Translations under genes and position numbers: made by a program | Part shown: one piece after another, positions 10,911 to 56,390 of the stretch | Layout: every line of letters starts with the position of its first letter | Position numbering within the stretch: the first letter of the stretch is position 1 | Notes under the pieces: generated by a model | Database searches by the model: none | What the model was told of the DNA's origin: nothing | What the model saw: the letters and a program-made list of their open reading frames with translations, nothing else | Assembly: GCA_964371245.1 (NCBI GenBank) | Contig: CAYJKP010000001.1 | Location: forward strand, 379,042-443,041 | Length of the DNA: 64,000 nt | Origin: an uncultured Gammaproteobacteria bacterium | Lineage (GTDB): Bacteria; Patescibacteriota; Patescibacteriia; JAHIZJ01 | Direction of reading: 5' to 3'

Positions 10911-10938
10911 TTGACAGACGATATCCTTCTGGTATACT
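10911..10938 (+). promoter_or_regulatory. sigma70-like promoter of the rplJ-rplL operon (TTGACA-16-TATACT)
   Basis: Consensus -35 and good -10, about 140 nt upstream of rplJ. Confidence 0.6.
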
Positions 10939-11076
10939 GTGGATATTACCGCAGACAGAGGGCCCCAGTACCCGAACGTACGTGAGTGGTGCTGGGTTAA
11001 TACACCAGCCTTCCGAGGTATAAATACATTTGTATTTTTTGTCTGCGGCCAGCAGATTTTTTTGTTAACAACCAAT
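10939..11076 (+). promoter_or_regulatory. ribosomal protein L10 leader (autoregulatory 5' UTR with attenuator hairpins plus U-runs at ~11028-11040 and 11042-11063)
   Basis: Structured leader between promoter and rplJ ATG. TCTGCggccaGCAGA followed by TTTTTTT sits immediately before the RBS. Confidence 0.55.
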
Positions 11077-11601
11077 ATGCCAAAAACACGTCAGAAAAAG
11101 GAACAAGACTCGAAACGCCTCGAAGAATTGTTACAAGGCAATAAACTTGCCGTTATTTCGACGTTTGAGGGTGTGAAAGTGAAAGATTCAAACGCCTTTC
11201 GGAAAGATCTCCGTGCCCAGCAGGCCGAGCTTTTGGTGACGAAAAAAACTATTCTGACGCGGGCCCTAAAAAACATACACTACGACGGTTTTGAGCCGGA
11301 AAAAGTGCAGGGGATGATGGGCATTGCCTTCAGTCAGGATGAAGTGACTGCCGCGAAACTGATAAAGACTTTTTCGAAAGATCGTAAGATTGTTTTTGTG
11401 GCTGGTTTTCTCGAGGGGAAATATTTGACCGCCCAGGAAATTGAAGCCTTAGCCGATCTTCCGTCGCGTGACATGCTCCTGGCTCGGACCGTTGGCGCCC
11501 TGAAATCACCGGTCAGCGGGTTTGTCCAGGTGTTACGCGGCACCTTGCAAGGCTTAGTGTACGCACTCAAGGGCATTGCTGATAAGAAGCCGGTTTCCTA
11601 A
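11077..11601 (+). CDS. rplJ: 50S ribosomal protein L10
   Basis: MPKTRQKKEQ...LAVISTFEGVKV; ORF-track N-terminal extension trimmed to the conserved start. Confidence 0.9.
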   Translation: MPKTRQKKEQDSKRLEELLQGNKLAVISTFEGVKVKDSNAFRKDLRAQQAELLVTKKTILTRALKNIHYDGFEPEKVQGMMGIAFSQDEVTAAKLIKTFSKDRKIVFVAGFLEGKYLTAQEIEALADLPSRDMLLARTVGALKSPVSGFVQVLRGTLQGLVYALKGIADKKPVS

Positions 11602-11640
11602 ACTTGTAATTTTGAATTAATAATTCTGAATTAAAACCCT

Positions 11641-12051: not shown

Positions 12052-12076
12052 CTCTATACATCGTCCATATAAAAAA

Positions 12077-12107
12077 CCTCCAGCAAGTGCTGGAAGTTTT
12101 TTTATAG
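12077..12107 (+). terminator. intrinsic terminator after rplL
   Basis: CCTCCAGCA-agtg-CTGGAAG followed by TTTTTTTAT. Confidence 0.75.
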
Positions 12108-12196
12108 AATTTCAACTAACGTTTACGTGTATGCAATGTTTCAATATCGTATACACGCCGTTAGCTGATGTACTTGTGCCGTGCGTTTGTACTCGT

Positions 12197-12475
12197 CTAT
12201 TCCTTAACCTCATTCAACCGGTTTTTCACTCTCCTCAAATTGATGGTCATTTGAAGAAAGAACTTGCCTTCAGGGGATAAGCGCGTCTCGTGTTCCCGCA
12301 AGAAGGATTGTATTTCTTCCTCGCTTTGATCGAGGTTGTTAGTGAGCCCGGTGAGTTCCGACAATTCCTTTTGCGGCAGCCTTTCAAGCGCTTCTTGCCA
12401 GGTTCGTTGTGCAACATCAACCTCGAGGAGTGTTTGTTCTCTTTTGGAGAGCTGAGGCGCGCGTTCTCTATTCAT
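12197..12475 (-). CDS. hypothetical small helical protein
   Basis: 92-aa charged, coiled-coil-like ORF directly downstream of the 772-aa gene. Confidence 0.4.
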   Translation of the reverse strand: MNRERAPQLSKREQTLLEVDVAQRTWQEALERLPQKELSELTGLTNNLDQSEEEIQSFLREHETRLSPEGKFFLQMTINLRRVKNRLNEVKE

Positions 12476-12614
12476 GGTTATTAGAGTTTTTACGAATAAA
12501 TTAGAAATGGTACAAAAATTTCACCTAACGTTTGCGAATCATGTGCTTGTCCCGACGCATCGAAGCGCGGGTCAAGATGGCAGATAGACGCTATTGTGCG
12601 AAATATAAAATTGG

Positions 12615-17236: not shown

Positions 17237-17338
17237 CTTATCCACATATTCACTGTCTAATGCGCAACGGAAGGAACCTCCGATCCCTCAGCCGTTGCCA
17301 GACAAGGAGTCATCACCATCAATCAAGTCAAACCGGCG

Positions 17339-18841: not shown

Positions 18842-19063
18842 TAAATACATGGTACGCTGCTCGTATTCGAAAGAAGGGGAGGGAAGCCGAGCCTTTGTTC
18901 GCATCAGCCCGAACCGGCTGAGTCGCTCAATCTGGAAAAGCTGCCTGATGCCGACGAACTTAGTCCGATTCCGAGTTTGAAGCGCCGAATTTTCTAGCGG
19001 CCAAACTCGCGTATCAATTAGCGATCAACATCCTTCGACAAAATAATCAATAAGAACAATCAC
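18842..19063 (+). promoter_or_regulatory. long structured intergenic leader; candidate riboswitch (weak TPP-like CUGAG/AUCUGGA elements)
   Basis: 220-nt untranslated region with several hairpins before a small substrate-capture-like membrane protein. Confidence 0.25.
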
Positions 19064-19603
19064 ATGTCTATAACCCAAGCACTTACACATCCAACAATTC
19101 GACTGACACCACTTCGTTGGGCGTTATTCAGCGCTACCTTTTCGGCGTTGGCCATTGTTACGCCGGTTATTGCCCATCAATTTCATCTGGCCGGGCCAAC
19201 ATTTTTACCGATGCACCTTTTTGTTTTTGTGGCCGCACTCCTTTTTGGTTGGCGGGTCGGGCTCACCGTCGGCGTACTATCACCGCTGCTCAGCCATGCG
19301 ATTACCGGCTTGCCCATCGCCAGTCTTTTGCCACTCGTGACGGCTGAGCTTATTGTCTATGGTGTAGTTGCCGGGTGGCTGAAGGAAAAAATGAACATGC
19401 CTGTCTGGCTTGCCTTGCTCGCCGCGATGGTGGCTGGTCGGCTCGCTCTCTTGCCAATGGCTGCAATCGTCGGTCCAATGACGCCAGTCGCCTATGTCGC
19501 TCAGGTAATTCGGATTGGCTGGCCGGGTATCGTCATCCAGATCGCCCTGATTCCTTGGATGATCTCGTTACTCCGGCCTTACCTACAGAGGAATCTGGAA
19601 TGA
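19064..19603 (+). CDS. small 5-6 TM membrane protein, possibly an ECF-transporter S-component-like substrate-capture protein
   Basis: 179-aa hydrophobic protein with Gly/Pro-rich TM helices. Confidence 0.5.
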   Translation: MSITQALTHPTIRLTPLRWALFSATFSALAIVTPVIAHQFHLAGPTFLPMHLFVFVAALLFGWRVGLTVGVLSPLLSHAITGLPIASLLPLVTAELIVYGVVAGWLKEKMNMPVWLALLAAMVAGRLALLPMAAIVGPMTPVAYVAQVIRIGWPGIVIQIALIPWMISLLRPYLQRNLE

Positions 19604-36050: not shown

Positions 36051-36319
36051 AATACCCTAATTTTAATGATTGGTTCATTTCATATGATCCTTATACAGAC
36101 TTTTTTCAAATGTATGACGAGAGTATTTTAAAGAGTTATAAGGAAGACTTGGTGTTGAAAAAAAATGGTCATGCAAGACTATATTTTAGCAAAAGATCTC
36201 CCAAGCTGTTATTGATAGAGGTCGATGGGGTATATGATAAATTTAAAAAAGATATAAACAGTATGACAAAAAAGCAGGTTGTCGGTTTGATAAAACCATT
36301 AATTAATTCATTTATTTAA
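36047..36319 (+). CDS. hypothetical protein (AT-rich cassette gene 2)
   Basis: ATGA start/stop overlap with gene 1 suggests translational coupling. Confidence 0.5.
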   Translation: MKYPNFNDWFISYDPYTDFFQMYDESILKSYKEDLVLKKNGHARLYFSKRSPKLLLIEVDGVYDKFKKDINSMTKKQVVGLIKPLINSFI

Positions 36320-36323
36320 TTTT

Positions 36324-36587
36324 ATGGCAGAAAATCAGCAACAAAAAATTACAATTATTAGCAAGCCCATTGGAATAGCATCAGATGGCAACGCAATAAA
36401 TGTACAAGAAAATGGAAATGTTGAATTAATATTTTTCCAAATTGTTCAGAAACTAGAACATGAGCTTCAGGTACAGGGAGTTGCAAATATTCGAATGAAT
36501 ATTGGTCAATTAGAGCAATTTATGCGTATATGTAATCAGGCCATTTCTGAATATAAGAAAAAACAGGAAGATAAAAAAAGTGCATAA
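36324..36587 (+). CDS. hypothetical protein (AT-rich cassette gene 3)
   Basis: Starts 4 nt after gene 2. Acidic/helical C-terminus. Confidence 0.5.
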   Translation: MAENQQQKITIISKPIGIASDGNAINVQENGNVELIFFQIVQKLEHELQVQGVANIRMNIGQLEQFMRICNQAISEYKKKQEDKKSA

Positions 36588-36695
36588 ATTCTATAATCTT
36601 CTCGACAATGCTATCCAATCACTCGCATTAGTAAAAGCTGGAAAATCTGTCCGTTCCGGTGGTTATACAAATTAAGAAAGTTTTTATGAATTATT

Positions 36696-36724
36696 ACGAC
36701 GGCAATATAGGTGCCGTCGTTTTA
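36696..36724 (+). terminator. hairpin terminator after the AT-rich cassette
   Basis: ACGACGGCA-atatagg-TGCCGTCGT followed by TTT. Confidence 0.5.
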
Positions 36725-36790
36725 GCATTGACAAAAAGACAAATTTATAGTATCCTTTACTGTTGAGCAATTACTTTGTACAATACAGGT

Positions 36791-43987: not shown

Positions 43988-44064
43988 TGGCGGAGCGGAC
44001 GGGACTCGAACCCGCGACCTCTGCCGTGACAGGGCAGCGTTCTAACCAACTGAACTACCGCTCC
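43988..44064 (-). tRNA. tRNA-Asp (GTC)
   Basis: Reverse complement GGAGCGGTAGTTCAGTTGGTTAGAACGCTGCCCTGTCACGGCAGAGGTCGCGGGTTCGAGTCCCGTCCGCTCCGCCA. 7-bp acceptor stem, anticodon loop CTGTCAC, T-loop GGTTCGAGTCC, encoded CCA. Confidence 0.95.
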
Positions 44065-47546: not shown

Positions 47547-48686
47547 ATGAAAGATAAAAGCCTATATCGGTCAATAGCGATTGTCATCGGTACGGCAATC
47601 GGTGCTGGTATTTTTGCCTTACCATATGCCTTTATGAAAGCCGGGTATTTCGCCGGGATTTTTTATTTGATTGCCCTCGGCATTATTTCCCTTGTGCTCC
47701 TTAAGGCCTACGGTGAAGTGGTCTTACGCACGAATGAGCGGTCGCAAATTATTGGCTATGTTCAGCGTTATCTCGGTCCCTGGGGCAGGGGAATATCCCT
47801 GATTTCATTTCTTTTTGGAATTACTGGTGCACTCATCGCCTATACACTTCAAATTGGGCGGTTTTTAGAGATACTGATCGGCGATCGGCTTGGCGGCAAC
47901 GCTTTTATTTACGGTCTGTGTTTTTACGGCATTGCGAGCCTCATCATTCTTATTGGTTTACGGCTCGTTGCCAGGTTTGAGCAATACTTAGTGACGCTCC
48001 TCATTCTCTTGGTGGCGTTTATTATTTTAGTTGGTTTGCCGAAAGTAAACGTAACAAACCTATTCACGCTGGATGCGACAAGTTTGTTTTTACCCTACGG
48101 TGTTGTTTTGTTTGCCTTAAGTGCGGCGTCAGCGATTCCTGATTCCATTGACGCACTGCCGGACCGAAAAAAACTATCAAAAGTTCTTACGATCGGTTTA
48201 CTCGTTCCGCTCATCGTCTACACGCTTTTTACGCTGGTGGTTGTCGGGATCAGCGGCGCCTTTACTGACGAAGCGGCCATCCCCGGACTGACGCCCATGC
48301 TTGGACAAGGCATTGTCGCTGTTGGCGCGCTTCTTGGAATTATGACCATGACAACAGCTTTCCTTAGCCTTGGTCTTGTTATCCGTGAGATTTATCAATT
48401 TGATTTAAAATTTCCAAAAGCATTAGCCTGGCTTGCCGGTTTAACGCCGCCGATTATTGTCTATCTCTTTCATCTGACCAGTTTCATCTCAATTATTAGT
48501 TTAGTCGGTGGTGTCATGGGTGGTTTCGATGGTATTTTGATCATTCTCATGTGGCGGAAGGCAAAGAAGTATGGCAATCGCCAACCGGAATGCACGATCG
48601 ATATCCCAAACTGGTTACAAGGCGTTATGATTTTGATATTTGCGCTCGGAATCGTCTACGAGATGTATTTTAATGTGTTGCATTAG
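47547..48686 (+). CDS. amino-acid permease (aromatic/hydroxy amino acid HAAAP-like, 11 TM)
   Basis: N-terminal SIAIVIGTAIGAGIFALPYAF motif typical of the Trp/Tyr permease family. Confidence 0.65.
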   Translation: MKDKSLYRSIAIVIGTAIGAGIFALPYAFMKAGYFAGIFYLIALGIISLVLLKAYGEVVLRTNERSQIIGYVQRYLGPWGRGISLISFLFGITGALIAYTLQIGRFLEILIGDRLGGNAFIYGLCFYGIASLIILIGLRLVARFEQYLVTLLILLVAFIILVGLPKVNVTNLFTLDATSLFLPYGVVLFALSAASAIPDSIDALPDRKKLSKVLTIGLLVPLIVYTLFTLVVVGISGAFTDEAAIPGLTPMLGQGIVAVGALLGIMTMTTAFLSLGLVIREIYQFDLKFPKALAWLAGLTPPIIVYLFHLTSFISIISLVGGVMGGFDGILIILMWRKAKKYGNRQPECTIDIPNWLQGVMILIFALGIVYEMYFNVLH

Positions 48687-48711
48687 GTAAATACAATAGA
48701 AGACAAACGAT

Positions 48712-48745
48712 CAATGAACAATATATTTGTTCATTGTTTTCGTTT
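48712..48745 (+). terminator. intrinsic terminator (part of a 40-nt near-palindrome)
   Basis: CAATGAACAAtatatTTGTTCATTG followed by TTTTCGTTT. Confidence 0.75.
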
Positions 48746-48905
48746 CCCTTGACAAAAAAGAAAATAATATATCGAAATAAATGATAGAAAGAAGAATTAT
48801 CTGCATGATTAGCGCAAGTTGCGAAAATTAAGACACGTTATCCACTTGACGTTACGAAGCGATGGGATGATGGTGAAATCACATACTTATTTGACGGGAG
48901 GGATT

Positions 48906-49088
48906 ATGACAAGCCGAGACACGCTCCTGAGAGTTCTTGACCAGCAGGTCGAGAATCTCTACATTATCAAGCGTCCAAGGCAACATCCCTGTCCAGCCTG
49001 CGGTGCGCTGACATTCCATCTCTGGGTGTGTCGCAACTGCCTGAACCGACAGGCAGAAGAATATTTCAAAAAACGGCACGCTGCTTAG
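48906..49088 (+). CDS. small CPxC..CRNC zinc-finger protein
   Basis: GGGAGGG RBS before the Met at 48906; its stop overlaps the dinB stop region. Confidence 0.4.
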   Translation: MTSRDTLLRVLDQQVENLYIIKRPRQHPCPACGALTFHLWVCRNCLNRQAEEYFKKRHAA

Positions 49089-50377
49089 GACAAAAGCGGG
49101 TCAACCTCAAGGCGGTTGAGCTCAACTGCTTGGGCTGGTTGTGTCTTCCGGAAGCCGATCCGATCGGGCGCGTTTCGATCAGTTTCCCACATGCTACCCA
49201 AATAAATTGTAAACTCACCATAGACGTCGTTTATTTCATCTAGGGCGTTTGACAGCGCCGTATTTTTTTTCTCAGATGAAGACCAGAGCGAGAGCTGGTG
49301 TGAATGCGGTACGAGCCGAAAAGCCGTCACCGCCAGCATGCTGATGGGACGGCCGGCGAAGGAGCGACGGAAGATGGCCATCACTTGGTGAAAGATGTTG
49401 GCGGTGTCAGCGATTGGATACGGCAGAGTTTGGTGGCCGCTAAAGCCTCCACCCGTGCTGTAGCTCCAATAGACGCTGATGCCGCGGGCGACGCGTTTTT
49501 GCTGGCGCAGGCGACGGCCGACTTTTTCGCACAGCTTCATAAAAATTTTACGGTGATAGGCGGGATCGGCAGTTTTGATCGGAACACAGTATGAGTGGCC
49601 GATCGATTTTGGCTCAGTGGGCTGTTGAACGCCGCCCAGCTCGAGGCCGTGAAGGTTGGCCCAGAGATAATACCCGGGCTTGCCCAAAGATTGCAGAAGG
49701 TTGGCAACCGGATAGCGATACAGCTGGCCGGGCGTGAAGATGCCGAGGGCGTTCAGCCGCGCTTCCAAACGGTGGTTAATGCCCCAGATGTCCGTAAGCG
49801 ATATGCGTTCGTAAAAATCAAACAGATCATCCCTTGAAAGCGGCAAAACGCTCTGTGGGCCAGTGTAATCAGAAGCGAGCTTGGCCAGAAAGCGGGTGAA
49901 GGAGAGGCCGATTGATGAACGCAACCATTCGCCGACCTCGGTAGTAATTTCGTGTTGAATGCGAGACGCTAAACGGCCGGCTTCAGACAAGCCCGAAACA
50001 TGGCCGGTTAGATCGAGAAACGCCTCGTCAATGCTGTATGGCTCAACATCATTCGTATACCGTTTTAAAATAGTGAATATCTTTTCGGTCGTCGAGCGGT
50101 ACTTGGCCGGGTCATTTTGGATCAGAATAACCTTTGGGTAGAGCTGGCGAGCGTCGCGGACGCGGCAGCCGGTTTTAATGCCGACCTTTTTTGCTTCGAT
50201 CGACGAGGCAATAATACAGCCATTCTCACTCAGATAGGCGCAGACGCCGACCGGCTTGCCGCGCAAAAACGGATTTGCCTGCTGCTCAACCGAGGCGAAA
50301 TAGCTGTTCATGTCGATGTGGAGGATGATTTTTTTTGTATTTTGTTCTAACATAAGCCATTTAAATAATCTTTCCAC
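49085..50377 (-). CDS. dinB: Y-family DNA polymerase IV
   Basis: ILHIDMNSYFASVE and SIDEAFLDLTG catalytic motifs. Start is probably the Met at 50353. Confidence 0.88.
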   Translation of the reverse strand: MERLFKWLMLEQNTKKIILHIDMNSYFASVEQQANPFLRGKPVGVCAYLSENGCIIASSIEAKKVGIKTGCRVRDARQLYPKVILIQNDPAKYRSTTEKIFTILKRYTNDVEPYSIDEAFLDLTGHVSGLSEAGRLASRIQHEITTEVGEWLRSSIGLSFTRFLAKLASDYTGPQSVLPLSRDDLFDFYERISLTDIWGINHRLEARLNALGIFTPGQLYRYPVANLLQSLGKPGYYLWANLHGLELGGVQQPTEPKSIGHSYCVPIKTADPAYHRKIFMKLCEKVGRRLRQQKRVARGISVYWSYSTGGGFSGHQTLPYPIADTANIFHQVMAIFRRSFAGRPISMLAVTAFRLVPHSHQLSLWSSSEKKNTALSNALDEINDVYGEFTIYLGSMWETDRNAPDRIGFRKTQPAQAVELNRLEVDPLLS

Positions 50378-51332
50378 ACCTTATGCAGTCCTGTTTCTTG
50401 ACAGGCAAATAGGGCATGGTAGTATGAAAGTCTGCGTTTTTGACAATTCGTGTGTGAGAGAGGAGCGGGGAGAGCGCCGTGTTCTGCCCAGTCGTAAAAG
50501 CCCGGACTCCTGTCTGCGCCGGCGAATGTCGGCAGGACGGGCTCCGGTGCACTTGGCACTGGGCCACGCGCTCAAGAAGAACTTCGCTACGGTCTAGCGA
50601 GATCTTGCGTCAGGGTAAGCCTCCGGGGAAATGCGGCGTCTGTCGCGTTCCGGCCGGTCTATCCAAAGGCTGATCCGACACTTTCTGGCCAACACTAGTC
50701 GGATTGGAAGCGCTTTTCTCGGGTCGCGGGAGACGGCCGTCAGTGGTTCGTAAGCGGGGAGAACCTGCGCCACCGATTGCGTCGTCGTTCATGTCGATAC
50801 CGCGCCATCTACGCTTCCACCCTGTAGTACGTTCGCTTCTCTCTCACACTTTCGTTCTCTTCGTCTCTCCGCCACCTCCGTGGGGGAGGAAATCCTCGGC
50901 TGGACCCGGACTGCTGGTCGAGGTGGCTGCATGGCTGAGTGTTGGACGGGGCTCCACCAGGAGCTTCATACGCCGCAACGGCCTTCCGTTGGACGTTCAG
51001 CGCTTACGCGCATGGCCTACGTTCAGTCCGAAACCACCAGTGCGTCTAGCCTTTACCGGCTAGCGCGGGGCCCAATCCCATCAGGGAGCGGGCTCTTTTT
51101 CTTTGCAAAGAGCCAACAAATAATAAAGCCAACGGACATCGTAGAGCTATGTTTTTATCAAAGCCAATGATGGCGGGGTCTCGTTCTATTATCCTTTGCT
51201 GATTCTACAAGGCTTGCGCCGAAAACAAAGATTTTCGGCTACGATATTGGTTGCGTGCAGGCGGGCCGTTGTTATTTTCATGATTGTCCAACTACACGGC
51301 ATTAAACTCGTCGTTTTTATCCACACATTTTC

Positions 51333-51360
51333 TTGACACTGTGGCAGGGCGTGATATCCT
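51333..51360 (+). promoter_or_regulatory. sigma70-like promoter (TTGACA-16-TATCCT with upstream TG)
   Basis: Perfect -35 hexamer inside the GC-rich segment, facing a downstream terminator. Confidence 0.45.
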
Positions 51361-51366
51361 GAAAGC

Positions 51367-51662
51367 CTGTACCATGAAAGGATAAAACCGAGAGCGAGGA
51401 GGGAGAGCGTCGCCGAGAGAGCCGACGCCGCATTCCGGTTCTGATAGGGGACCATCGCTGATACGCGCACCTGCAGCCCGTCCGCGGCGGCGTTTTCCAG
51501 AAACTGACCGTTCCCGAGTCTTTCTGGAGACTGACCGTGTCAGAAGCCACCTGACAACCAAAGCCCTTCGGCTGGTTGTCCTTCGCCGTCCGTCTGACGC
51601 CCCCTCCTCCATTGTTTCTCTCGTTTCTATCCCTTGCCCGGCTCTTCGGAGTGCGGGTTTTT
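51367..51662 (+). ncRNA. candidate ~300-nt structured sRNA (promoter-to-terminator unit on the plus strand)
   Basis: Region bounded by the promoter and an intrinsic terminator. Contains hairpins GCGTCG..CGACGC, AGTCTttctggAGACT, CAACCAaaGCC(CTTCGG)GCTGGTTG and a direct repeat ACTGACCGT x2. Confidence 0.4.
51637..51662 (+). terminator. intrinsic terminator with UUCG tetraloop
   Basis: CCCGgCTC-TTCG-GAGtgCGGG followed by TTTTTAATTT. Confidence 0.65.
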
Positions 51663-51920
51663 AATTTGATCCATCCGTGTAGAGATCCTCTAGTTTCCAA
51701 GCAAGCGCGGAAGGGGAAAACGACAGAACGAATGTGTTTGAACTGTCTGATACGGAAAAGAAAAAAACAAGCTCGCGGCCGACCCGGTTCGTATGAACGA
51801 GGTTCAGCCTTTTCACGGTGTATCGCTTCCGTCCCCAGGTGAAGGCATGAGGCGTGATTTTCCGCCCGACAAAGGAAGCCAGAACGTGAACCGGTTCGTT
51901 TATCTTTTCATACATAAAGC

Positions 51921-51952
51921 AATTCAAAATTCAAAATGTAAAATTAAAAATT
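51921..51952 (+). repeat. AT-rich heptad-periodic repeat copy a (AATTCAAAATTCAAAATGTAAAATTAAAAATT)
   Basis: 7-nt periodic AATTnAA units; related copies at 51982, 52687 and 53136. Confidence 0.75.
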
Positions 51953-51958
51953 GAGGAA

Positions 51959-51975
51959 GCCCGCCCAGAGCGGGC
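51959..51975 (-). terminator. lexA terminator hairpin, centre of a ~95-bp AT-rich palindromic element
   Basis: GCCCGCCcagaGCGGGC; on the minus strand it is followed by TTCCTCAATTTTTAATTTT. Confidence 0.65.
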
Positions 51976-51981
51976 ACAATC

Positions 51982-52016
51982 ATTTTGCATTTTGAATTAT
52001 TAATTTTGAATTTCAT
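51982..52016 (-). repeat. AT-rich repeat copy b, inverted relative to a
   Basis: ATTTTGCATTTTGAATTATTAATTTTGAATTTC is the reverse complement of the a/c family. Confidence 0.75.
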
Positions 52017-52020
52017 CATT

Positions 52021-52677
52021 CTATTTCGCCGGCTGAAAGTTTCTGGTGTACGTCTTATAATTCTGCCAGTTGTGCTCGAACGTCCGAAAGATCGCCCGGA
52101 CAATGCCCTGGATGGCCGGGTTCTTCGCGTAAATCGGTTTCATCTTTGCGTTGGCTGGCTGGAGCCGAATGCGGTCGCGTTCGCGGTAGTAGCGTTTTAG
52201 GGTGGCATAGGTGTTGTCGAGCAGCGCCACGACGACGTCACCGTTCCGCGGGTAGAAGCTCCGCTCGACGATCACAAAGTCGCCGTCGAGAATGCCATCG
52301 TCAATCATTGATTCGCCTTTGACTTTCAGAACGTAGGAGTTTTCGTCGCGTACGATCTCGGCCGGGACGGTAATTGTTTCCCGCTCTTCGATTGCCTCGA
52401 TCGGCGCACCAGCCGTAATCAAGCCGGCCAGGGGCAACTCAATCGCTTTTTTGAAGCGGGCCACGCGGGTCGGTTCGAGCGAACGGGCCTTGCCGGCGTC
52501 GGCCTTAAGAAACCCTTTGTCCTCCAGGCCGCGGATATGCTCGGCGATGGTAGCGGGGGAGGAGAGGCCAAGGTGGTCGGCGATTTCCCGATAGCTAGGA
52601 GAAAAATCGTTGATCTTAATGAACTCGACGACGAAGTCGAGAATTTCTTTTTGTTTTTTGGTAAGGCGTTCGGTCAT
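52021..52677 (-). CDS. lexA: SOS repressor LexA
   Basis: N-terminal winged HTH (SPSYREIADHLGLSSPATIAEHI), Ala-Gly cleavage site region (LAGLITAGAPIEA), Ser (GESM) and Lys (VALLDNTYATLKRY) of the S24 peptidase dyad. Confidence 0.92.
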   Translation of the reverse strand: MTERLTKKQKEILDFVVEFIKINDFSPSYREIADHLGLSSPATIAEHIRGLEDKGFLKADAGKARSLEPTRVARFKKAIELPLAGLITAGAPIEAIEERETITVPAEIVRDENSYVLKVKGESMIDDGILDGDFVIVERSFYPRNGDVVVALLDNTYATLKRYYRERDRIRLQPANAKMKPIYAKNPAIQGIVRAIFRTFEHNWQNYKTYTRNFQPAK

Positions 52678-52686
52678 ATGGTTGGA

Positions 52687-52727
52687 AATTAAGAATTAAT
52701 AATTCAAAATTTAAAATGCAAAATTAT
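52687..52727 (+). repeat. AT-rich repeat copy c, located in the lexA promoter region
   Basis: AATTAAGAATTAATAATTCAAAATTTAAAATGCAAAATTAT. Confidence 0.75.
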
Positions 52728-52753
52728 GGAATACGGAATTAAAGGACAGTGGT

Positions 52754-53101
52754 TCACTCTTTTGATTTGAGTATGATGGTTGCGATAATTTTTGAAAGCT
52801 CATCATTTTCCATCGCTATGTTTTTTATTTGGGAATGCTTGATACCAGACAGCGATCCCAATACAGTCAACCAATATTCAGTTTCTCTGGCAGAGCGCAA
52901 GGCAATGCTCATATAGCGCCGGAACTCTTTCTTTGTTGCACCGTGTTGTGCCTCAACAATATTTGCCCCGATTGAACACCCTGAACGCATAACTTGGCTC
53001 CTGACGGCTCTTGATTCCGGTGTTAGAGTGACCGATTGAAGAAAATGGGCGAGGGTGATGCTAAATTGCAGTGCCCGCTGATGAATAGTAACAGTAGCCA
53101 T
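52754..53101 (-). CDS. four-helix-bundle protein (23S rRNA intervening-sequence protein / Avd-like, PF05635 family)
   Basis: ALQFSITLAHFLQ...SQVMRSGCSIGANIVEAQ...FRRYMSIALRSARETEYWL motifs. Start trimmed to MATVTIH. Confidence 0.75.
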   Translation of the reverse strand: MATVTIHQRALQFSITLAHFLQSVTLTPESRAVRSQVMRSGCSIGANIVEAQHGATKKEFRRYMSIALRSARETEYWLTVLGSLSGIKHSQIKNIAMENDELSKIIATIILKSKE

Positions 53102-53135
53102 AAAAATCTTTTCTGTTCCTTGCCGCCTTCCTTCC

Positions 53136-53160
53136 TTTTGAATTTTACATTTTGAATTTC
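53136..53160 (-). repeat. AT-rich repeat copy d, inverted, immediately upstream of the four-helix-bundle gene
   Basis: TTTTGAATTTTACATTTTGAATTTC; with copy c it brackets the 4HB gene. Confidence 0.75.
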
Positions 53161-53245
53161 TAGCCATTTTCATTATACCGAACAAAAACCGAACGTCAAG
53201 GGGTAGTTATCCACAAAGGTAAAAAACCGCTAATTATGGAAGTTT

Positions 53246-53273
53246 TCAAAACAAAAAGCACCGAGAAGGGTGC
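53246..53273 (-). terminator. intrinsic terminator of the 53310 gene
   Basis: On the minus strand, AGCACCcttctcGGTGCT followed by TTTTTGTTTT. Confidence 0.6.
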
Positions 53274-53309
53274 TTACGATGAAGGGTGCTAGCGATAGTT
53301 GGGACGCGT

Positions 53310-53687
53310 TTACCCGCGAGAGTGATGTTCCAGAGTGTGTTGTTGGTAGGCATGCCGCACCCAATGGAATAGGCCGAAGGAAACAAGGCCAGGGAGAAAG
53401 AGCACGAGGAGGCAGAAAAGCAGCGGCGTAAAGGTCTGTGACCCGAGGGAGGACGAAAGCTCCATGATCATCGATTGCGCTGTTTCCTGCAGAACGAACG
53501 TTGCCACGACCGTGAACGCCATCCAGCCGAACAGCAGAAGCCAGGGCGTGGCGGACCCATCGGGGCGGTGAATGAAGTGCCAGAGAGCCGATACAGCAAG
53601 TATCAGAGCGATGGCGTTACAGATCCAGAACGCGATCGCGGGACCGACGAGACGTTTCATGGGTACCTCCTCTTGAACAAGCCGCAC
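53310..53687 (-). CDS. hypothetical 4-TM membrane protein (GC-rich)
   Basis: 125-aa ORF with a probable start at MKRLVG (53660). GC ~58%. Confidence 0.5.
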   Translation of the reverse strand: MRLVQEEVPMKRLVGPAIAFWICNAIALILAVSALWHFIHRPDGSATPWLLLFGWMAFTVVATFVLQETAQSMIMELSSSLGSQTFTPLLFCLLVLFLPGLVSFGLFHWVRHAYQQHTLEHHSRG

Positions 53688-53963
53688 TCCATCGGTATCC
53701 TACAGGGTTTATTATTTTTTGGCTAGATAGAGGAATGCATGAATATTGAATTCTCGCTAGACAAAAATCAGTAGATATGCTATAATTATACTATGAAAAT
53801 AAATATCAAAAGAAATTCACAACGGTTTAGAGTATGTAATCCCGCCCAGCGAGCTGAGTGGGTTTTTATTATGCCAACGCTACATTCAAAAGATGACCTG
53901 TCGAAACAGCAGCGCTGGTATGAAAAGATAATCATGCGGTTTGGCATTCATGCCTAAATAGAC

Positions 53964-56390
53964 ATGTGGAAACCGTTTACCAGTAGTTTAACGCGCCGGG
54001 TAATATTCCAAGTGTCGCTGTCAGCGACTGTTATGCTTGGAGCATTGATTTACGTTTCACTATCAAACACCTCGGCGAGTTTGAAAAAAGAAATACAACT
54101 GCGCGTCAATCAGCAAGGGGAAGCATTATCCCTTATTTTTAATAATAGCCTTGAGAGACTCTATTTTGATACTGATTCTTTTGCCCAGCGAACAGCCATC
54201 AAAAACGGAAGCCAAACATTAAGCAATCAACCTGACCTGACAACCATCGGCAACCTAGCGGAATATACGTCGCTGAAAGAAGCGCTTATCGATGAACAGA
54301 GTGCGCGAGACGCAAGTTTTATCGCCATTGTCAACGCCAAAGGGCAAATATTGGCCGCGAGTACGAACGCCCAAACGGGTAAAAAATTATCAATCAATGG
54401 ATATGTTGATGAGGTATTGAAGAGTGGACTCTCGGTTAAATCTTTCGAAATTATTCCCAGTACCGAATTAACCCTTCTGAGCCCAGAATTATTAGAACAG
54501 GCGAGGGTTGATCGTCGCACGACCGAATACCAAAAAACAGGCTGGCGCGATAAAAAAGCTGAAACGGACGGTTTGTTCATGACGGCGGTATCTGTGATAA
54601 AGAAAGACAACACGGTAATTGGCGCTGTCGTCAGCGGTATCCTAATGAATAACGACATGGCGCTTCTTGAGAGCGTCACCAAAAAAAGCGGCGGCATCGC
54701 CACAATCTATTTATACGACGCTCGGATAGCGACAACACAAACGGATCAAGATCGGAACGAAACAGCCAAGGGTACGCTCGCCTCGGAAGACGTTGTGAAT
54801 GCCGTTTACGTTTCACAAAATGATTTTTCGGGCCGGTCTTTTGAAGTGAATGACTGGTATCTGATGTCGTATATTCCGTTACGCGATAGCAACAACGAGG
54901 TCGTTGGGAGCATCGCTCGGGGCATCATAGAATCAGAAATACAAAAAAATATTTCGGGGTTGCAATGGCGGTATGTCATTATGGGAGGAATAGCCGTAAT
55001 GATCGTTTTTATTGTCACGAGTATCATCACTCGGCAAATCGTCAATTCATTGAAAAAGTTGGCAGCGAACGCCTATCGGATCAGCCGCGGTAATCTGGAT
55101 ATCGACATCAAGGCGCCGGATCGTGACGATGAAATCGGCGATCTGACGCACAGCTTCATTATCATGAAGGATAAACTCCTAGAATATTACACGAAACTTG
55201 AAGATCTGGTCGCACAACGGACACAGGAGCTGCGTCAAAAAGTGAAAGATCTTGAACACGCTCAGCATTCAATCGAACGAGAAAAAAACAAATCAGAATC
55301 AATCCTAGCAAATGTCGGCGATGGCGTCATGGCGTTGGATGAGAATCTTACCTTTATTGCGTGTAACGAAGCGGCCGTTGAATTATTCGGCTATACAAAC
55401 ACTGACGTTATTGGAAAACAGCTTGATGACATTATTGTTCTAAAAAGCCTGAAGCTTGCCAATGCGAATAAAGAGTACTCGCCCATCATGGAGTCCATAA
55501 AAACCGGTCAGATCATCGTAACCGGAACCGGTGAATACGCGATCGTAAACAAGGCAAAAAAAGAAATACCCGTCACCATTACGGCGGCGCCGCTCATTGA
55601 CGCGCACGGGGTTATTAAGGGCGGCGTTGTCGTGCTCCGGGATGTGACAAAAGAGCAGGAAATTGATAAAATGAAGTCAGAATTCGTCTCGGTCGCCTCG
55701 CACCAACTGCGGACGCCGTTATCGGCCTCAAAGTGGTTCTTGGAGATGTTGCTCGATGGTGACGCCGGCAAGCTCAATGATGAGCAACGGGAGTACCTTG
55801 ACCATACCTATAAATCGAATGAACGGATGATCGCGTTGGTCAACGACCTGCTCAATGTTTCTCGGATTGAATCCGGCACAATCGCCATCGAACCGACCAG
55901 CACCGATATGGATGGCATGGTCAAAAGCGTTCTCTTTGAACTGACTCCGCTGATCAAACAGAAAAATATCAAAACAGTTTTTAAGGCATTGCCCGGCGGC
56001 ACGCCGAAGATTAAAATCGATTCAAAGCTTATTCGCCAGGTCTTTCAAAATCTTCTTTCAAATGCAGTGAAATATACGCCGGAGAGCGGAACGACAGGCG
56101 TGCGAATCACAAAAGCAGGCAAGTATCTCCAATTTGAAATTTTTGATTCCGGCGTCGGCATACCAAAAGTACAGCAGTCAAAGGTGTTTAAGAAATTTTT
56201 CCGGGCCGACAATGTGATTACGCTCCAGACGGAAGGCACCGGGCTAGGACTCTATGTGGCGAAATCAGTCGTTGACGCCTCTGGCGGTAAAATCTGGTTT
56301 ACGTCCAACGAAGGACAGGGGACGAGCTTTTTCTTCACGCTCCCCTTGGCCGGCAGCAAGCGGCGCGAAGGCGAAAAAACATTAATCTAA
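53964..56390 (+). CDS. sensor histidine kinase: periplasmic double-Cache-like sensor, HAMP, PAS, HisKA, HATPase_c
   Basis: Two TM flank a ~290-aa extracytoplasmic domain. HAMP (IGDLTHSFIIM), PAS (ILANVGDGVMALD), H-box SHQLRTPL, G-box GTGLGLYV. Confidence 0.88.
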   Translation: MWKPFTSSLTRRVIFQVSLSATVMLGALIYVSLSNTSASLKKEIQLRVNQQGEALSLIFNNSLERLYFDTDSFAQRTAIKNGSQTLSNQPDLTTIGNLAEYTSLKEALIDEQSARDASFIAIVNAKGQILAASTNAQTGKKLSINGYVDEVLKSGLSVKSFEIIPSTELTLLSPELLEQARVDRRTTEYQKTGWRDKKAETDGLFMTAVSVIKKDNTVIGAVVSGILMNNDMALLESVTKKSGGIATIYLYDARIATTQTDQDRNETAKGTLASEDVVNAVYVSQNDFSGRSFEVNDWYLMSYIPLRDSNNEVVGSIARGIIESEIQKNISGLQWRYVIMGGIAVMIVFIVTSIITRQIVNSLKKLAANAYRISRGNLDIDIKAPDRDDEIGDLTHSFIIMKDKLLEYYTKLEDLVAQRTQELRQKVKDLEHAQHSIEREKNKSESILANVGDGVMALDENLTFIACNEAAVELFGYTNTDVIGKQLDDIIVLKSLKLANANKEYSPIMESIKTGQIIVTGTGEYAIVNKAKKEIPVTITAAPLIDAHGVIKGGVVVLRDVTKEQEIDKMKSEFVSVASHQLRTPLSASKWFLEMLLDGDAGKLNDEQREYLDHTYKSNERMIALVNDLLNVSRIESGTIAIEPTSTDMDGMVKSVLFELTPLIKQKNIKTVFKALPGGTPKIKIDSKLIRQVFQNLLSNAVKYTPESGTTGVRITKAGKYLQFEIFDSGVGIPKVQQSKVFKKFFRADNVITLQTEGTGLGLYVAKSVVDASGGKIWFTSNEGQGTSFFFTLPLAGSKRREGEKTLI

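Follow-up and report, generated by a model that had tools for sequence, protein, structure and literature searches.

Two tandem predicted structured RNA genes between gene D and dinB in a Patescibacteria lexA operon

Bacteria have few large structured non-coding RNAs, and every class added so far has led into new biology. The closest described counterparts of the RNAs considered here, namely, OLE, GOLLD, ROOL and the raiA motif RNA, are encoded by stand-alone genes of several hundred nucleotides that have their own promoter and terminator, and the RNAs themselves are GC-enriched compared to the genome, multibranched, closed by a long-range helix and narrowly distributed. Relevant in a different respect are the constitutive antisense RNAs of E. 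coli that are matched with SOS-induced genes in the pairs IstR-1/tisB, SymR/symE and AgrB/dinQ, which are ~60-140 nt long and target the mRNA of a small toxin. To our knowledge, no class of large structured non-coding RNA has been reported in Patescibacteria, the genomes of which are streamlined. In a 64-kb stretch of Patescibacteria DNA (the window, that is, the whole stretch that was analysed), the interval between the lexA and dinB genes consists of a small protein gene, D, and two tandem predicted non-coding RNA genes, units A and B, on the opposite strand. These units resemble the large RNAs in size, in the predicted possession of their own promoter and terminator, in GC enrichment, in the predicted multibranched fold with its closing helix and in narrow spread, but differ from them in that only the frame of the units is conserved, whereas OLE, GOLLD, ROOL and raiA RNAs have conserved cores, alignable even between distant hosts, in that no Rfam 15 family matches them, and in their location inside an SOS operon. 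Like IstR-1, SymR and AgrB, the units lack a LexA box, lie on the strand opposite to a LexA-controlled unit and would be complementary to SOS transcripts that extend into them; unlike those RNAs, they are 300-670 nt long, are predicted to be highly structured, apparently come with no conserved small toxin ORF and adjoin the gene for a DNA polymerase.

Both genes that delimit the interval are real and are encoded on the same, minus strand, as the first-pass annotation of this DNA had it: lexA (52021-52677) contains the Pfam domains Peptidase_S24 (3.5e-29) and LexA_DNA_bind (1.1e-19), and dinB (49085-50377), which encodes the Y-family DNA polymerase IV, contains IMS (7.5e-42) and IMS_C (1.3e-17). 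The start of dinB is either GTG at 50377 or ATG at 50353, and the gene callers of other assemblies give a product of 422 or 430 aa. The same annotation described the intervening DNA as one 1.5-kb, ORF-free element with a GC content of about 60%, and this description has to be taken apart. The absence of ORFs holds for positions 50378-51660, a non-coding stretch of 1283 nt (~1.28 kb) that is the longest in the window, in a genome that is ~89% coding; it does not hold for 51661-51915 on the minus strand, where gene D encodes a conserved small all-beta protein of 84 aa. Instead of a single element, there are this protein gene and two separate RNA units on the other strand, with an unconserved spacer between the units. 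The GC content of 50378-51920 is 0.551 overall and bimodal, and only the two blocks that correspond to unit A (0.61) and unit B (0.595) reach the claimed value, compared with 0.44 in the spacer, 0.486 in D, 0.526 in dinB, 0.556 in lexA and 0.49 in the window as a whole.

Gene D is conserved in related loci, and in about 35 of the 80 that were compared it is the gene that comes next after lexA; the structural model of its product is confident, yet a structural search with it yielded no meaningful neighbour. In this clade, the slot that was supposed to be usually occupied by sulA or imuA/imuB contains D followed at once by dinB, the two genes being 0-50 nt apart in L009, L044, L050, L052 and L059. 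By this comparison of gene orders, the operon of the Patescibacteria clade was ancestrally lexA-D-dinB, and the RNA cassette is an insertion specific to certain lineages. Of the three readings proposed for the segment at the outset, that of a foreign non-coding element or large structured RNA comes closest, given that the cassette appears inserted relative to the ancestral order and resembles structured RNA.

The operon's LexA-controlled promoter, TTGAC-GTTCGGTTTTTGTTC-GGTATAAT (53172-53199, minus strand), includes the operator, a direct repeat GTTC-N7-GTTC (53180-53194), which is the sole copy near the locus and lies upstream of an inserted PF05635 gene (52754-53185); the same operator-in-promoter arrangement is found upstream of lexA in most of the related loci. 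No LexA box was found at the promoters of the RNA units, within the cassette or at dinB, and no minus-strand terminator was found after D. The neighbouring genes are dinB, D, lexA, the PF05635 gene, a permease and a histidine kinase; the PF05635 gene is bAvd-like and belongs to a family that is scattered through these genomes. An AT-rich palindromic repeat element (51914-52019; arms at 51914-51951 and 51982-52019; inverted repeats I1-I7) surrounds a GC hairpin, GCCCGC-CCAGA-GCGGGC, in the DNA that separates lexA from D. The element had been noticed beside lexA, correctly, and was thought to abut the GC-rich segment, which it does not: it adjoins gene D. Further copies are located at 52685-52731, 53127-53160 and 11589-11632, and L097 and L153 lack the element between their lexA and D genes.

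Unit A (50432-51100, plus strand) is a predicted structured RNA of ~670 nt in which a leader, GUCUGCGUUUUUGACA, is followed by the closing helix P1, a multibranch domain of 400 nt, a CU-rich linker, a second domain of 200 nt and the terminator. Its candidate promoter, TTGACA and TG-n-TAGTAT separated by 16 nt (50398-50425, plus strand), matches the consensus at 10 of 12 positions, has an extended -10 element and is conserved in L001, a relative with ~89% identity. It bears a 28-nt motif, TTTCTTGACA-N7-RGGGCRTGRTA, that occurs in the window only at units A and B, with a chance expectation of 0.01. The purine-rich 5' strand of P1, GUGUGAGAGAGGAGCG (50452-50467, plus strand), and the pyrimidine-rich 3' strand, CGCUUCUCUCUCACAC (50834-50849, plus strand), make up a 16-nt inverted repeat with 94% complementarity that is present in both the minimum free energy (MFE) and the centroid structures, and the CU-rich single-stranded linker (50850-50870) comes next. 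The terminator module, GGGCCC AAUC .. GAGC GGGCUC followed by U5 (51068-51100, plus strand), is of the intrinsic type, is unique in the window and shows 82-97% identity over 6 lineages. The MFE of unit A is -312 kcal/mol (z = -4.29), with none of 20 shuffled sequences equally good. A 12-nt match between 50787-50798 and the 5' coding region of dinB raised the possibility of pairing with the dinB mRNA; the match is not kept in L001 and is probably a relic.

Described bacterial bidirectional promoters are characterized by symmetry of the -10 element, with reciprocal -7T and -11A, and by start sites 18 bp apart (PMC10268837). A similar configuration can be read from the sequence upstream of unit A, where a candidate divergent promoter for dinB, TTGTCA and CATACT separated by 15 nt (50421-50447, minus strand), has its -10 region in common with the unit A promoter: TAGTAT of unit A (50420-50425) and CATACT on the minus strand (50426-50421) display the reciprocal -11A/-7T, -35-like hexamers are present on both sides, and the predicted starts of unit A and dinB are ~18 bp apart. 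In comparison with the described promoters, the minus-strand spacer here is 15 nt long, and the arrangement is not found in all lineages: L097 has an equivalent in the same place (ATGTCA, 15 nt, TATAAT), whereas L153 and L002 have other, weak sites.

Units A and B are separated by a spacer (51101-51316; GC 0.44) that is unconserved, cannot be aligned with L001 and includes a hairpin, GCGCCGAAAA..UUUUCGGCUACG, similar to hairpin repeats in L091. In an SOS-linked type I toxin-antitoxin system, a small hydrophobic ORF under LexA control would be overlapped by the RNA or complementary to it; the sole candidate among the minus-strand ORFs listed, one with a hydrophobic stretch (51189-51470), lies mostly in this spacer, which L001 does not conserve. 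A DnaA-box-like sequence, TTATCCACA (51317-51325, plus strand), one of three exact copies in the window, precedes the -35 element of unit B by 7 nt; the motif is also found beside the lexA-operon promoter and beside the RNA promoters in L092, L153 and L154. The unit B promoter, TTGACA and TG-n-TATCCT separated by 16 nt (51333-51360, plus strand), again with 10 of 12 matches and an extended -10 element, is paralogous to that of unit A. Unit B itself (51367-51662, plus strand; ~296 nt) is predicted to fold with P1 formed by 51390-51403 and 51602-51622, has an MFE of -119 kcal/mol (z = -4.22; none of 100 shuffles equally good) and terminates at 51637-51662 in a hairpin with a C(UUCG)G loop, the U-run of which overlaps the stop codon of D. 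The early impression of a hairpin-rich segment is borne out by these z-scores, which place the folding of both units far above chance; the "several" C(UUCG)G loops amount to two (51566 and 51644), both in unit B. Taken together, these features suggest that the cassette consists of two tandem, paralogous genes, predicted to be independently transcribed, for large GC-rich RNAs.

Comparison with L001 provides evidence of constraint. Unit A is ~93% and unit B ~94% identical to the L001 counterpart, compared with 74% at the four-fold sites of the flanking genes, and there are invariant runs of up to 80 nt. Locally low divergence may explain part of this conservation, given that identity at four-fold sites reaches 0.85 in lexA and 0.94 in D as opposed to 0.66-0.70 further off. 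Within unit A, substitutions affect 4.7% of the paired and 10.7% of the unpaired positions (Fisher p = 0.006); the contrast is weaker for units A and B combined (p = 0.04). Among the 31 altered pairs in the two units, 19 are still able to pair, as against ~37% expected (p = 0.005), and one double compensatory change, A51499:U51525 to G:C, was detected, in unit B. The L001 counterpart of unit A contains a 139-nt insertion at a hairpin tip (50594-50596) that is predicted to form an independent branch on the stem of this hairpin, all of its pairs lying within the insertion. Such length variation through self-contained insertions at hairpin tips, with units ranging from 150 to 820 nt, is reminiscent of the expansion segments of rRNA, the difference being that, according to Rfam, the units are no part of rRNA or of a known ribonucleoprotein RNA.

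The units do not behave as protein-coding sequence. Substitutions relative to L001 are distributed over the codon positions as 15/20/9 in unit A and 7/3/4 in unit B, compared with 21/9/83 in dinB and 57/20/237 in the kinase gene; the indels in the units measure 1, 1, 1, 2, 3, 5 and 139 nt and are frameshifting, and ORFs of 119 and 93 aa have no Pfam match. A gene or pseudogene was rejected on these grounds, and with it the decayed gene considered by the first-pass annotation.

RNA units at the D-dinB junction were found in at least 7 lineages (~8 as counted), namely, the window, L001, L002/L099, L092, L097/L098, L153, L154/L155 and L156, and in the other loci fetched the units are missing. The units share the promoter (9 to 11 of 12 matches in the same place in L097, L153 and L002), a closing helix that is purine:pyrimidine in every homologous unit but differs in sequence each time, a CU-rich single-stranded tail that, in most units, leads up to the terminator, and a 39-nt terminator module that is 82-97% identical across lineages with dinB proteins of only ~60% identity; each unit ends with a hairpin and then a U-run. 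Promoter, closing helix and terminator are kept across lineages in which dinB identity ranges from 59% to 100%. The interiors, of 150-820 nt, are unalignable between lineages: no k-mers or common internal motif beyond chance were shared among five lineages, so that no conserved core is visible, and a comparison of hairpin loops by eye revealed nothing conserved. The fold z-scores of the homologues are -5.3 in L002, -6.4 in L097 and -4.2 in L153, with L092 weak (-2.1) and L154 no better than shuffles (+0.26). All this points to a lineage-restricted RNA family with a conserved frame and a fast-evolving, expansion-prone body. The RNA is dispensable: L093 is without it, and L094-L096 retain just a stub of ~150 nt. 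The junction also accepts unrelated cargo, namely, PF05635 genes, GIY-YIG genes and the gene for a 185-aa secreted protein, a decayed remnant of which is seen in L094, and, from this pattern of occupancy, is an insertion hotspot. In L092, a duplicated dinB 5' end of ~70 nt lies beside the RNA promoter, and a unit-B-like 5' end is combined with a unit-A-like terminator.

Beyond these loci, blastn of units A and B against the 80 lexA loci from GTDB genomes matched L001 alone, and no similarity was detected in phage and plasmid collections. In viral contigs, the terminator pattern had no matches and the leader pattern (off by one T) had 25, all unrelated chance matches. In the single metagenome scan, only one of the 28 matches to the terminator pattern was real, namely, L137, which is L001's contig; the pattern demanded AATC, so the AAAC variants of L153 and L156 would escape it.

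Searches against described RNA families were uniformly negative. Rfam 15 at gathering thresholds recognized only a tRNA-Asp and an L10 leader in the whole window; cmscan of 48000-54000 at E <= 1 gave a single match, a spurious miRNA outside the region; the RNA regions of L097, L002, L092 and L094 matched nothing at E <= 5; and a scan of 12 other loci at gathering thresholds matched no family. No covariance-model match was obtained to GOLLD, ROOL, HEARO/omega RNA, OLE, raiA, group I/II introns, RNase P, 6S, tmRNA, SRP or any other family in Rfam 15, so the intron-like elements and the Rfam classes named as candidates beforehand (group I/II introns, GOLLD, ROOL, HEARO, raiA) find no counterpart in the window and four homologous loci with cut-offs of E <= 1 to 5. 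Group II introns are recognized by insertion into a host gene with exon junctions, a 5' GUGYG and the domain V/VI hairpins. An ORF-less group II intron was rejected because the units have predicted promoters and terminators of their own, interrupt no gene and match neither Intron_gpII nor group-II-D1D4; the GUGUG at the start of unit A P1 is not conserved in other lineages. Neither this group-II-like resemblance nor an RNase P-like one, GGAGGAAAUCC, is supported by Rfam or by conservation, and a triple helix of the pyrimidine motif that would join the CU-rich tail to P1, possible-looking in unit A, is not conserved either. The neighbouring genes include no reverse transcriptase, contrary to what would be expected of a retron msr/msd RNA or the template of a diversity-generating retroelement; for the latter, blastn of the region against the window yielded the AT-rich elements only, with no TR/VR repeat. 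A MITE, an IS-derived or another multicopy mobile element was likewise rejected: the units have no flanking terminal inverted repeats, and their promoter and terminator motifs occur at no other locus in the window.

We propose to define a dinB-adjacent RNA family by the terminator GAGCCCAAWC..GCGGGCUC-Un, together with location on the opposite strand at the D-dinB junction, a sigma-70-type promoter, a purine:pyrimidine closing helix and a CU-rich tail. Unit A displays all of these features and unit B all except the terminator sequence and the position beside dinB, given that it adjoins D; L001, L092, L097, L153 and L156 share the features, and L002 and L154 have some of them. On balance, units A and B are probably genuine structured RNA genes of this new family.

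What such RNAs might do is a matter of conjecture. The RNAs are probably constitutive because they have no LexA box. Their transcription would converge with that of lexA-D and diverge from that of dinB; the insertion would sever dinB from the LexA-controlled promoter, and the promoter region of unit A is probably bidirectional and may now drive dinB. Any transcript that reads through from D would be the exact antisense of the RNAs of units A and B, which we take to be abundant and stable. Because of this potential antisense read-through and the separation of dinB from its LexA promoter, our preferred guess, weakly held, is that the RNAs exert cis-acting antisense or insulating control over the error-prone polymerase. 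The variability of the -10 overlap with dinB, which is absent in L153 and L002, speaks against such a mechanism, and so does the consideration that a GC-rich structured body would be superfluous in a simple insulator. The more specific proposal that a CPR-specific class of RNA acts as a gate on dinB, with the bidirectional promoter and antisense interference setting the level of the translesion polymerase in place of LexA control, strikes us as unlikely.

The RNAs might, alternatively, act in trans, in a structural, ribonucleoprotein or regulatory capacity, for instance as a scaffold or sponge that contacts a partner through the CU-rich, anti-Shine-Dalgarno-like tail or the conserved 3' hairpin; the position near dinB would then reflect a permissive hotspot and vertical inheritance, with no tie to the SOS response. 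We regard this as possible but doubtful. The size, GC enrichment and folding stability of the units are those of other large bacterial non-coding RNAs, the terminator module is conserved beyond the needs of termination, a CU-rich tail precedes it in most units, and the junction admits cargo as diverse as PF05635, GIY-YIG and secreted-protein genes. However, there is no conserved internal motif with which to bind a conserved partner, no candidate partner gene co-occurs with the RNA, the RNA is lost or shrunken in close relatives and, in the data examined, it is never found away from the D-dinB junction.

Less probable still is an exchangeable cassette, the bodies of which are swapped or diversified by recombination between conserved ends, namely, the promoter with the dinB 5' end and the terminator module, so that the RNA would be a selfish element, or else a decoy or defence RNA that diversifying selection keeps changing. 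The contrast of conserved ends and unalignable interiors would be accounted for, as would the duplicated dinB 5' end and mixed unit ends in L092, the exact 12-nt match of unit A to dinB and the attraction of the site for selfish small genes. The same pattern could, however, also result if a weakly constrained RNA body simply drifted fast, and recombinases, terminal inverted repeats and target-site duplications were not seen (with one locus per genome region), nor does the element occur in the viral, plasmid and phage collections searched.

That the segment is functionless debris, a decayed gene or mobile element or hairpin-rich junk with incidental motifs, is very improbable. The RNA is dispensable in relatives, the L154 homologue folds no better than chance, and decay is known in this slot from L094; but the units show no codon periodicity, have indels that shift the frame and contain no ORF with a Pfam match, which does not fit a decayed gene, and neither long invariant runs at 74% four-fold-site identity, nor avoidance of paired bases by substitutions, nor retention of promoter, closing helix and terminator over the whole range of dinB divergence is expected of junk, and a useless stretch of 1.3 kb would be unusual in so densely coding a genome. 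The suspicion of a chimeric assembly join, prompted by the compositional step alone, can be dismissed because the 1.3-kb segment with its flanks is 100% identical in 8 or more assemblies made independently from different samples (ENA and Logan), with contigs of up to 918 kb, recurs in a 91-95%-identical version in another MAG and, in diverged form, occupies this junction in 6 further lineages.

Correction of the annotation exposes D as a widespread, uncharacterised protein of the SOS operon and puts on record that the LexA operator here is GTTC-N7-GTTC. In a streamlined Patescibacteria genome, 1.3 kb of non-coding DNA is costly, and the separation of dinB, the gene for a mutagenic polymerase, from its LexA operator by two antisense, strongly promoted predicted RNA genes presents a compact, testable case. 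Should the RNAs turn out to have no effect on dinB, they would still constitute a new RNA family with an odd mode of evolution, in which the ends are conserved and the body is unalignable; should they influence dinB, as in the cis control that we tentatively prefer, this would be a new control route for stress-induced mutagenesis.

Pfam assignments agree with the first-pass annotation that lexA (52021-52677) and dinB (49085-50377 with a GTG start, or up to 50353 with an ATG start) both lie on the minus strand. The description of the intervening interval (50378-51920) as ORF-free holds in that no long ORF there looks real, but the 3' quarter of this interval is coding: gene D (51661-51915, minus strand) encodes an 84-aa protein with 10 invariant residues in the alignment. 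Of 80 related loci, about 35 have D directly after lexA by tblastn, some of them with two copies in tandem, and the profile search retrieved at least 611 cluster representatives, all 'hypothetical', all from Patescibacteria and all without a Pfam domain. The truly non-coding sequence spans 1283 nt (50378-51660), the longest such stretch in the window, which is about 89% coding. The GC content of the interval, previously put at about 60%, is 0.551 (window average, 0.49) and is bimodal, namely, 0.61 at 50432-51102, 0.44 in the spacer that follows, 0.595 at 51367-51662 and 0.486 in gene D; the C(UUCG)G tetraloops, once counted as several, are only two. The AT-rich palindrome reported at one edge is real but is located between lexA and D. 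Such repeats (TTCAAAATTCAAAATG...) form a family with members near lexA and at other sites in the window (51914-52019, 52685-52731, 53127-53160, 11589-11632), in some cases with a GC hairpin inside. Similar elements flank lexA in four related loci (L027, L058, L093, L094); to judge by appearance, these genomes carry a small element of the REP or MITE type.

A near-consensus promoter (10 of 12 matches, extended -10 TG) lies ahead of each GC-rich block on the plus strand: TTGACA-16-TAGTAT (50398-50425) for the first block, unit A, and TTGACA-16-TATCCT (51333-51360) for the second, unit B. The two promoters are paralogous; a 28-nt motif (TTTCTTGACA-N7-RGGGCRTGRTA) occurs in the window only at these two sites, with 0.01 occurrences expected by chance. 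The predicted plus-strand transcripts are ~50432-51100 (A) and ~51367-51662 (B), and at the 3' end of each block stands a hairpin with a U-run behind it (51068-51100 in A, 51637-51662 in B). Both units fold much better than dinucleotide shuffles (z = -4.29 and -4.22) and, in the predicted structures, a long-range helix, P1, formed by a purine-rich 5' strand and a pyrimidine-rich 3' strand, closes a multibranched body. In unit A, P1 joins 50452-50467 with 50834-50849 on the plus strand (94% complementarity). A CU-rich, mostly unpaired stretch follows P1 up to the terminator in both units, and unit A contains an additional 200-nt second domain between P1 and the terminator. Hairpin repeats of the form GC(C/G)SGAAA ... 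TTTCSGGCTACG are found once in the A-B spacer (51216-51243) and three times downstream of D in another locus (L091:1000-1290).

The lexA product of the window is 100% identical to that of the Patescibacteria (CPR) MAG JBAZLK010000004.1 (locus L001), the DNA of which is only 88-90% identical to the window, so that L001 represents a related species. Three-base periodicity of substitutions between the two was not found in the units (15/20/9 in A, 7/3/4 in B), and the indels measure 1, 1, 1, 2, 3, 5 and 139 nt; such periodicity is strong in the flanking genes (dinB, 21/9/83; lexA, 3/0/36; kinase, 57/20/237). Four-fold degenerate sites of the flanking genes are 74% identical, and the units match at ~93-95% of positions and contain unchanged stretches as long as 80 nt, a level of conservation to be read with the caveat that the lexA-D neighborhood itself is unusually similar in the two genomes (four-fold-site identity of 0.66-0.70 in distal genes, 0.78 in dinB, 0.85 in lexA and 0.94 in D). 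The A-B spacer could not be aligned at all. Under the predicted minimum free energy structure, substitutions affect 4.7% of the paired and 10.7% of the unpaired positions of unit A (Fisher p = 0.006), although for A and B combined the contrast reaches only p = 0.04. Of the 31 pairs altered in A and B together, 19 retain pairing, compared with ~37% expected (p = 0.005); one pair in unit B changed on both sides (A51499:U51525 to G:C). The 139-nt insertion in L001 sits precisely on the tip of the hairpin at 50584-50600, where it is predicted to fold by itself into a branch carried by that stem. These comparisons speak for selection on structure.

In this CPR clade, lexA, D and dinB ancestrally follow one another in this order on a single strand, and D frequently overlaps dinB or is less than 50 nt away from it (L009, L044, L050, L052, L059). 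Insertions are concentrated at the D|dinB junction, a hotspot. In other lineages, this junction carries repeat-flanked genes for PF05635/bAvd-like four-helix-bundle proteins (L011, L023, L029), GIY-YIG genes bracketed by short lineage-specific repeats (L028, L034, L035) or a gene for a 181-185-aa secreted protein without a Pfam match (L093, L097, L156). Among the closest dinB and D relatives, retrieved by exact-protein look-up, RNA units in the same orientation as in the window occupy the junction in L092 (dinB 78% identical; ~430 nt), L002/L099 (65%; ~470 nt), L097/L098 (64%; ~820 nt), L153 (62%; ~495 nt), L154/L155 (59%; ~285 nt) and, in partial form, L156; L094-L096 retain only a ~150-nt RNA stub, and L093 lacks a unit. 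All homologous units share a promoter with 9 to 11 of 12 matches, a P1 of lineage-specific sequence and a CU-rich tail. The predicted folds of L002, L097 and L153 are good (z = -5.3, -6.4 and -4.2), that of L092 only reaches -2.1, and L154 scores +0.26. A 39-nt terminator module (GAGCCCAAWC..GUGCGGGCUC-U5-CUUUGC) is common to six lineages with 82-97% identity, and a leader, GUCUGCGYUUUUUGACA, to three; blastn and k-mer analysis detected nothing in common between the unit interiors of different lineages. The L092 unit joins a unit-B-like 5' end to a unit-A-type terminator, and its RNA promoter is separated from the true start of dinB by a ~70-nt pseudo-copy of the dinB 5' end (L092:505-575, encoding MSEKNREIILHLDMNSYFASVEQ). 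This duplication hints at recombination-mediated turnover and suggests that the RNA cassette came by recombination, bringing a piece of a foreign dinB along. Positions 50787-50798 of unit A are a 12-nt exact copy (GTTCATGTCGAT) of the plus strand within the N-terminal coding region of dinB (50306-50317) and, as such, are complementary to the dinB mRNA there; this match is absent from L001 and is probably a relic of an L092-like duplication, or else due to chance.

Searches with Rfam 15 identified no family in the region at E <= 1 and none in four homologous loci at E <= 5, which excludes, as currently modelled, GOLLD, ROOL, HEARO, OLE, raiA, group I and II introns, RNase P, 6S, tmRNA and SRP. 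The lack of a nearby RT gene argues against a retron or DGR, and the TR/VR repeat of a DGR is absent. Neither terminal inverted repeats of the units nor extra copies in the window were found, phage, plasmid and IMG/VR sequences showed no similarity to the cassette, and a full-text literature search yielded no description of such an RNA. In the whole window, Rfam and ARAGORN turned up just two features: a ribosomal protein L10 leader (10931-11071, plus strand; 44.8 bits, just over the 44-bit threshold) and tRNA-Asp(GTC) (43988-44064, minus strand). Other stretches without an ORF of at least 100 aa, at 36051-36775 (725 nt, GC 0.31), 12052-12614 (563 nt, GC 0.43) and 18842-19374 (533 nt, GC 0.51), have no Rfam match at gathering thresholds.

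The LexA operator of this clade takes the form of a directly repeated GTTC (GTTC-N7-GTTC) placed within the lexA promoter (TTGACGTTCGGTTTTTGTTCGGTATAAT), in the stretch that separates -35 and -10; most loci (in the range L002-L097) have it ahead of lexA. The only local copy in the window (53180-53194, minus strand), within the promoter at 53172-53199, is upstream of a PF05635 four-helix-bundle gene (52754-53185) that is inserted between this promoter and lexA and so has come to head the SOS operon. This operon consists of the PF05635 gene, lexA and D, and the antisense cassette separates dinB from it. No LexA box is present in either RNA promoter or in the short dinB upstream region. Just 20 nt separate the unit A -35 element from the dinB start if this is the GTG, and 45 nt if it is the ATG, so any dinB promoter must overlap the unit A promoter and leader. 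A candidate on the minus strand (TTGTCA, 50447-50442; 15 nt; CATACT, 50426-50421) uses the same -10 region as unit A, and the pair predicts divergent starts ~18 bp apart with reciprocal -11A/-7T, the geometry described for bacterial bidirectional promoters (PMC10268837). ATGTCA-15-TATAAT occupies the equivalent position in L097, and a shared dinB promoter could be the reason for the conservation of UUUUGACA in the leader; the divergent arrangement is not general across lineages. No minus-strand terminator was found after D, so that any SOS-promoter transcript extending past D would run antisense to A and B alike. DnaA-box-like sequences (TTATCCACA/TGTGGATAA) occur 4-40 nt upstream of, or within, many lexA-operon promoters and several RNA-unit promoters, including those of L092, L153 and L154; of only three exact copies in the 64-kb window (51317-51325, 53207-53215, 17238-17246), two are at this locus, and shared regulation by DnaA or another factor could be involved.

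We consider it probable, if well short of certain, that A and B are real genes for structured ncRNAs, that they are paralogs from a lineage-restricted family with no earlier description, and that they were inserted into the SOS operon in antisense orientation. Rather tentatively, we propose that the RNAs are made constitutively, that the cassette uncouples dinB from LexA and supplies, or overlaps, a new dinB promoter, and that the RNAs or their convergent transcription may act in cis on read-through and dinB expression. The main rival, a trans-acting structural or regulatory RNA for which the location is incidental, is a serious but lesser possibility. An exchangeable, diversifying cassette is unlikely, though unalignable interiors between conserved ends and the composite L092 unit fit such turnover. 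Very unlikely is functionless debris, for which the poorly folding L154 unit might speak, and against which stand the substitution patterns of the paired positions. The chimeric assembly join considered in the first-pass annotation is excluded for practical purposes by the recurrence of the 1.3-kb segment, at 100% identity and between the same flanks, in no fewer than eight independent assemblies (a series from ENA and one from Logan, with contigs of up to 918 kb). As a kind of object, the large stand-alone structured ncRNA is already known, but the family is not, and its combination of features is unusual, namely, a patescibacterial host, a site within the SOS operon beside dinB, tandem paralogs, and a body that expands at its hairpins and defies alignment, set between conserved ends.
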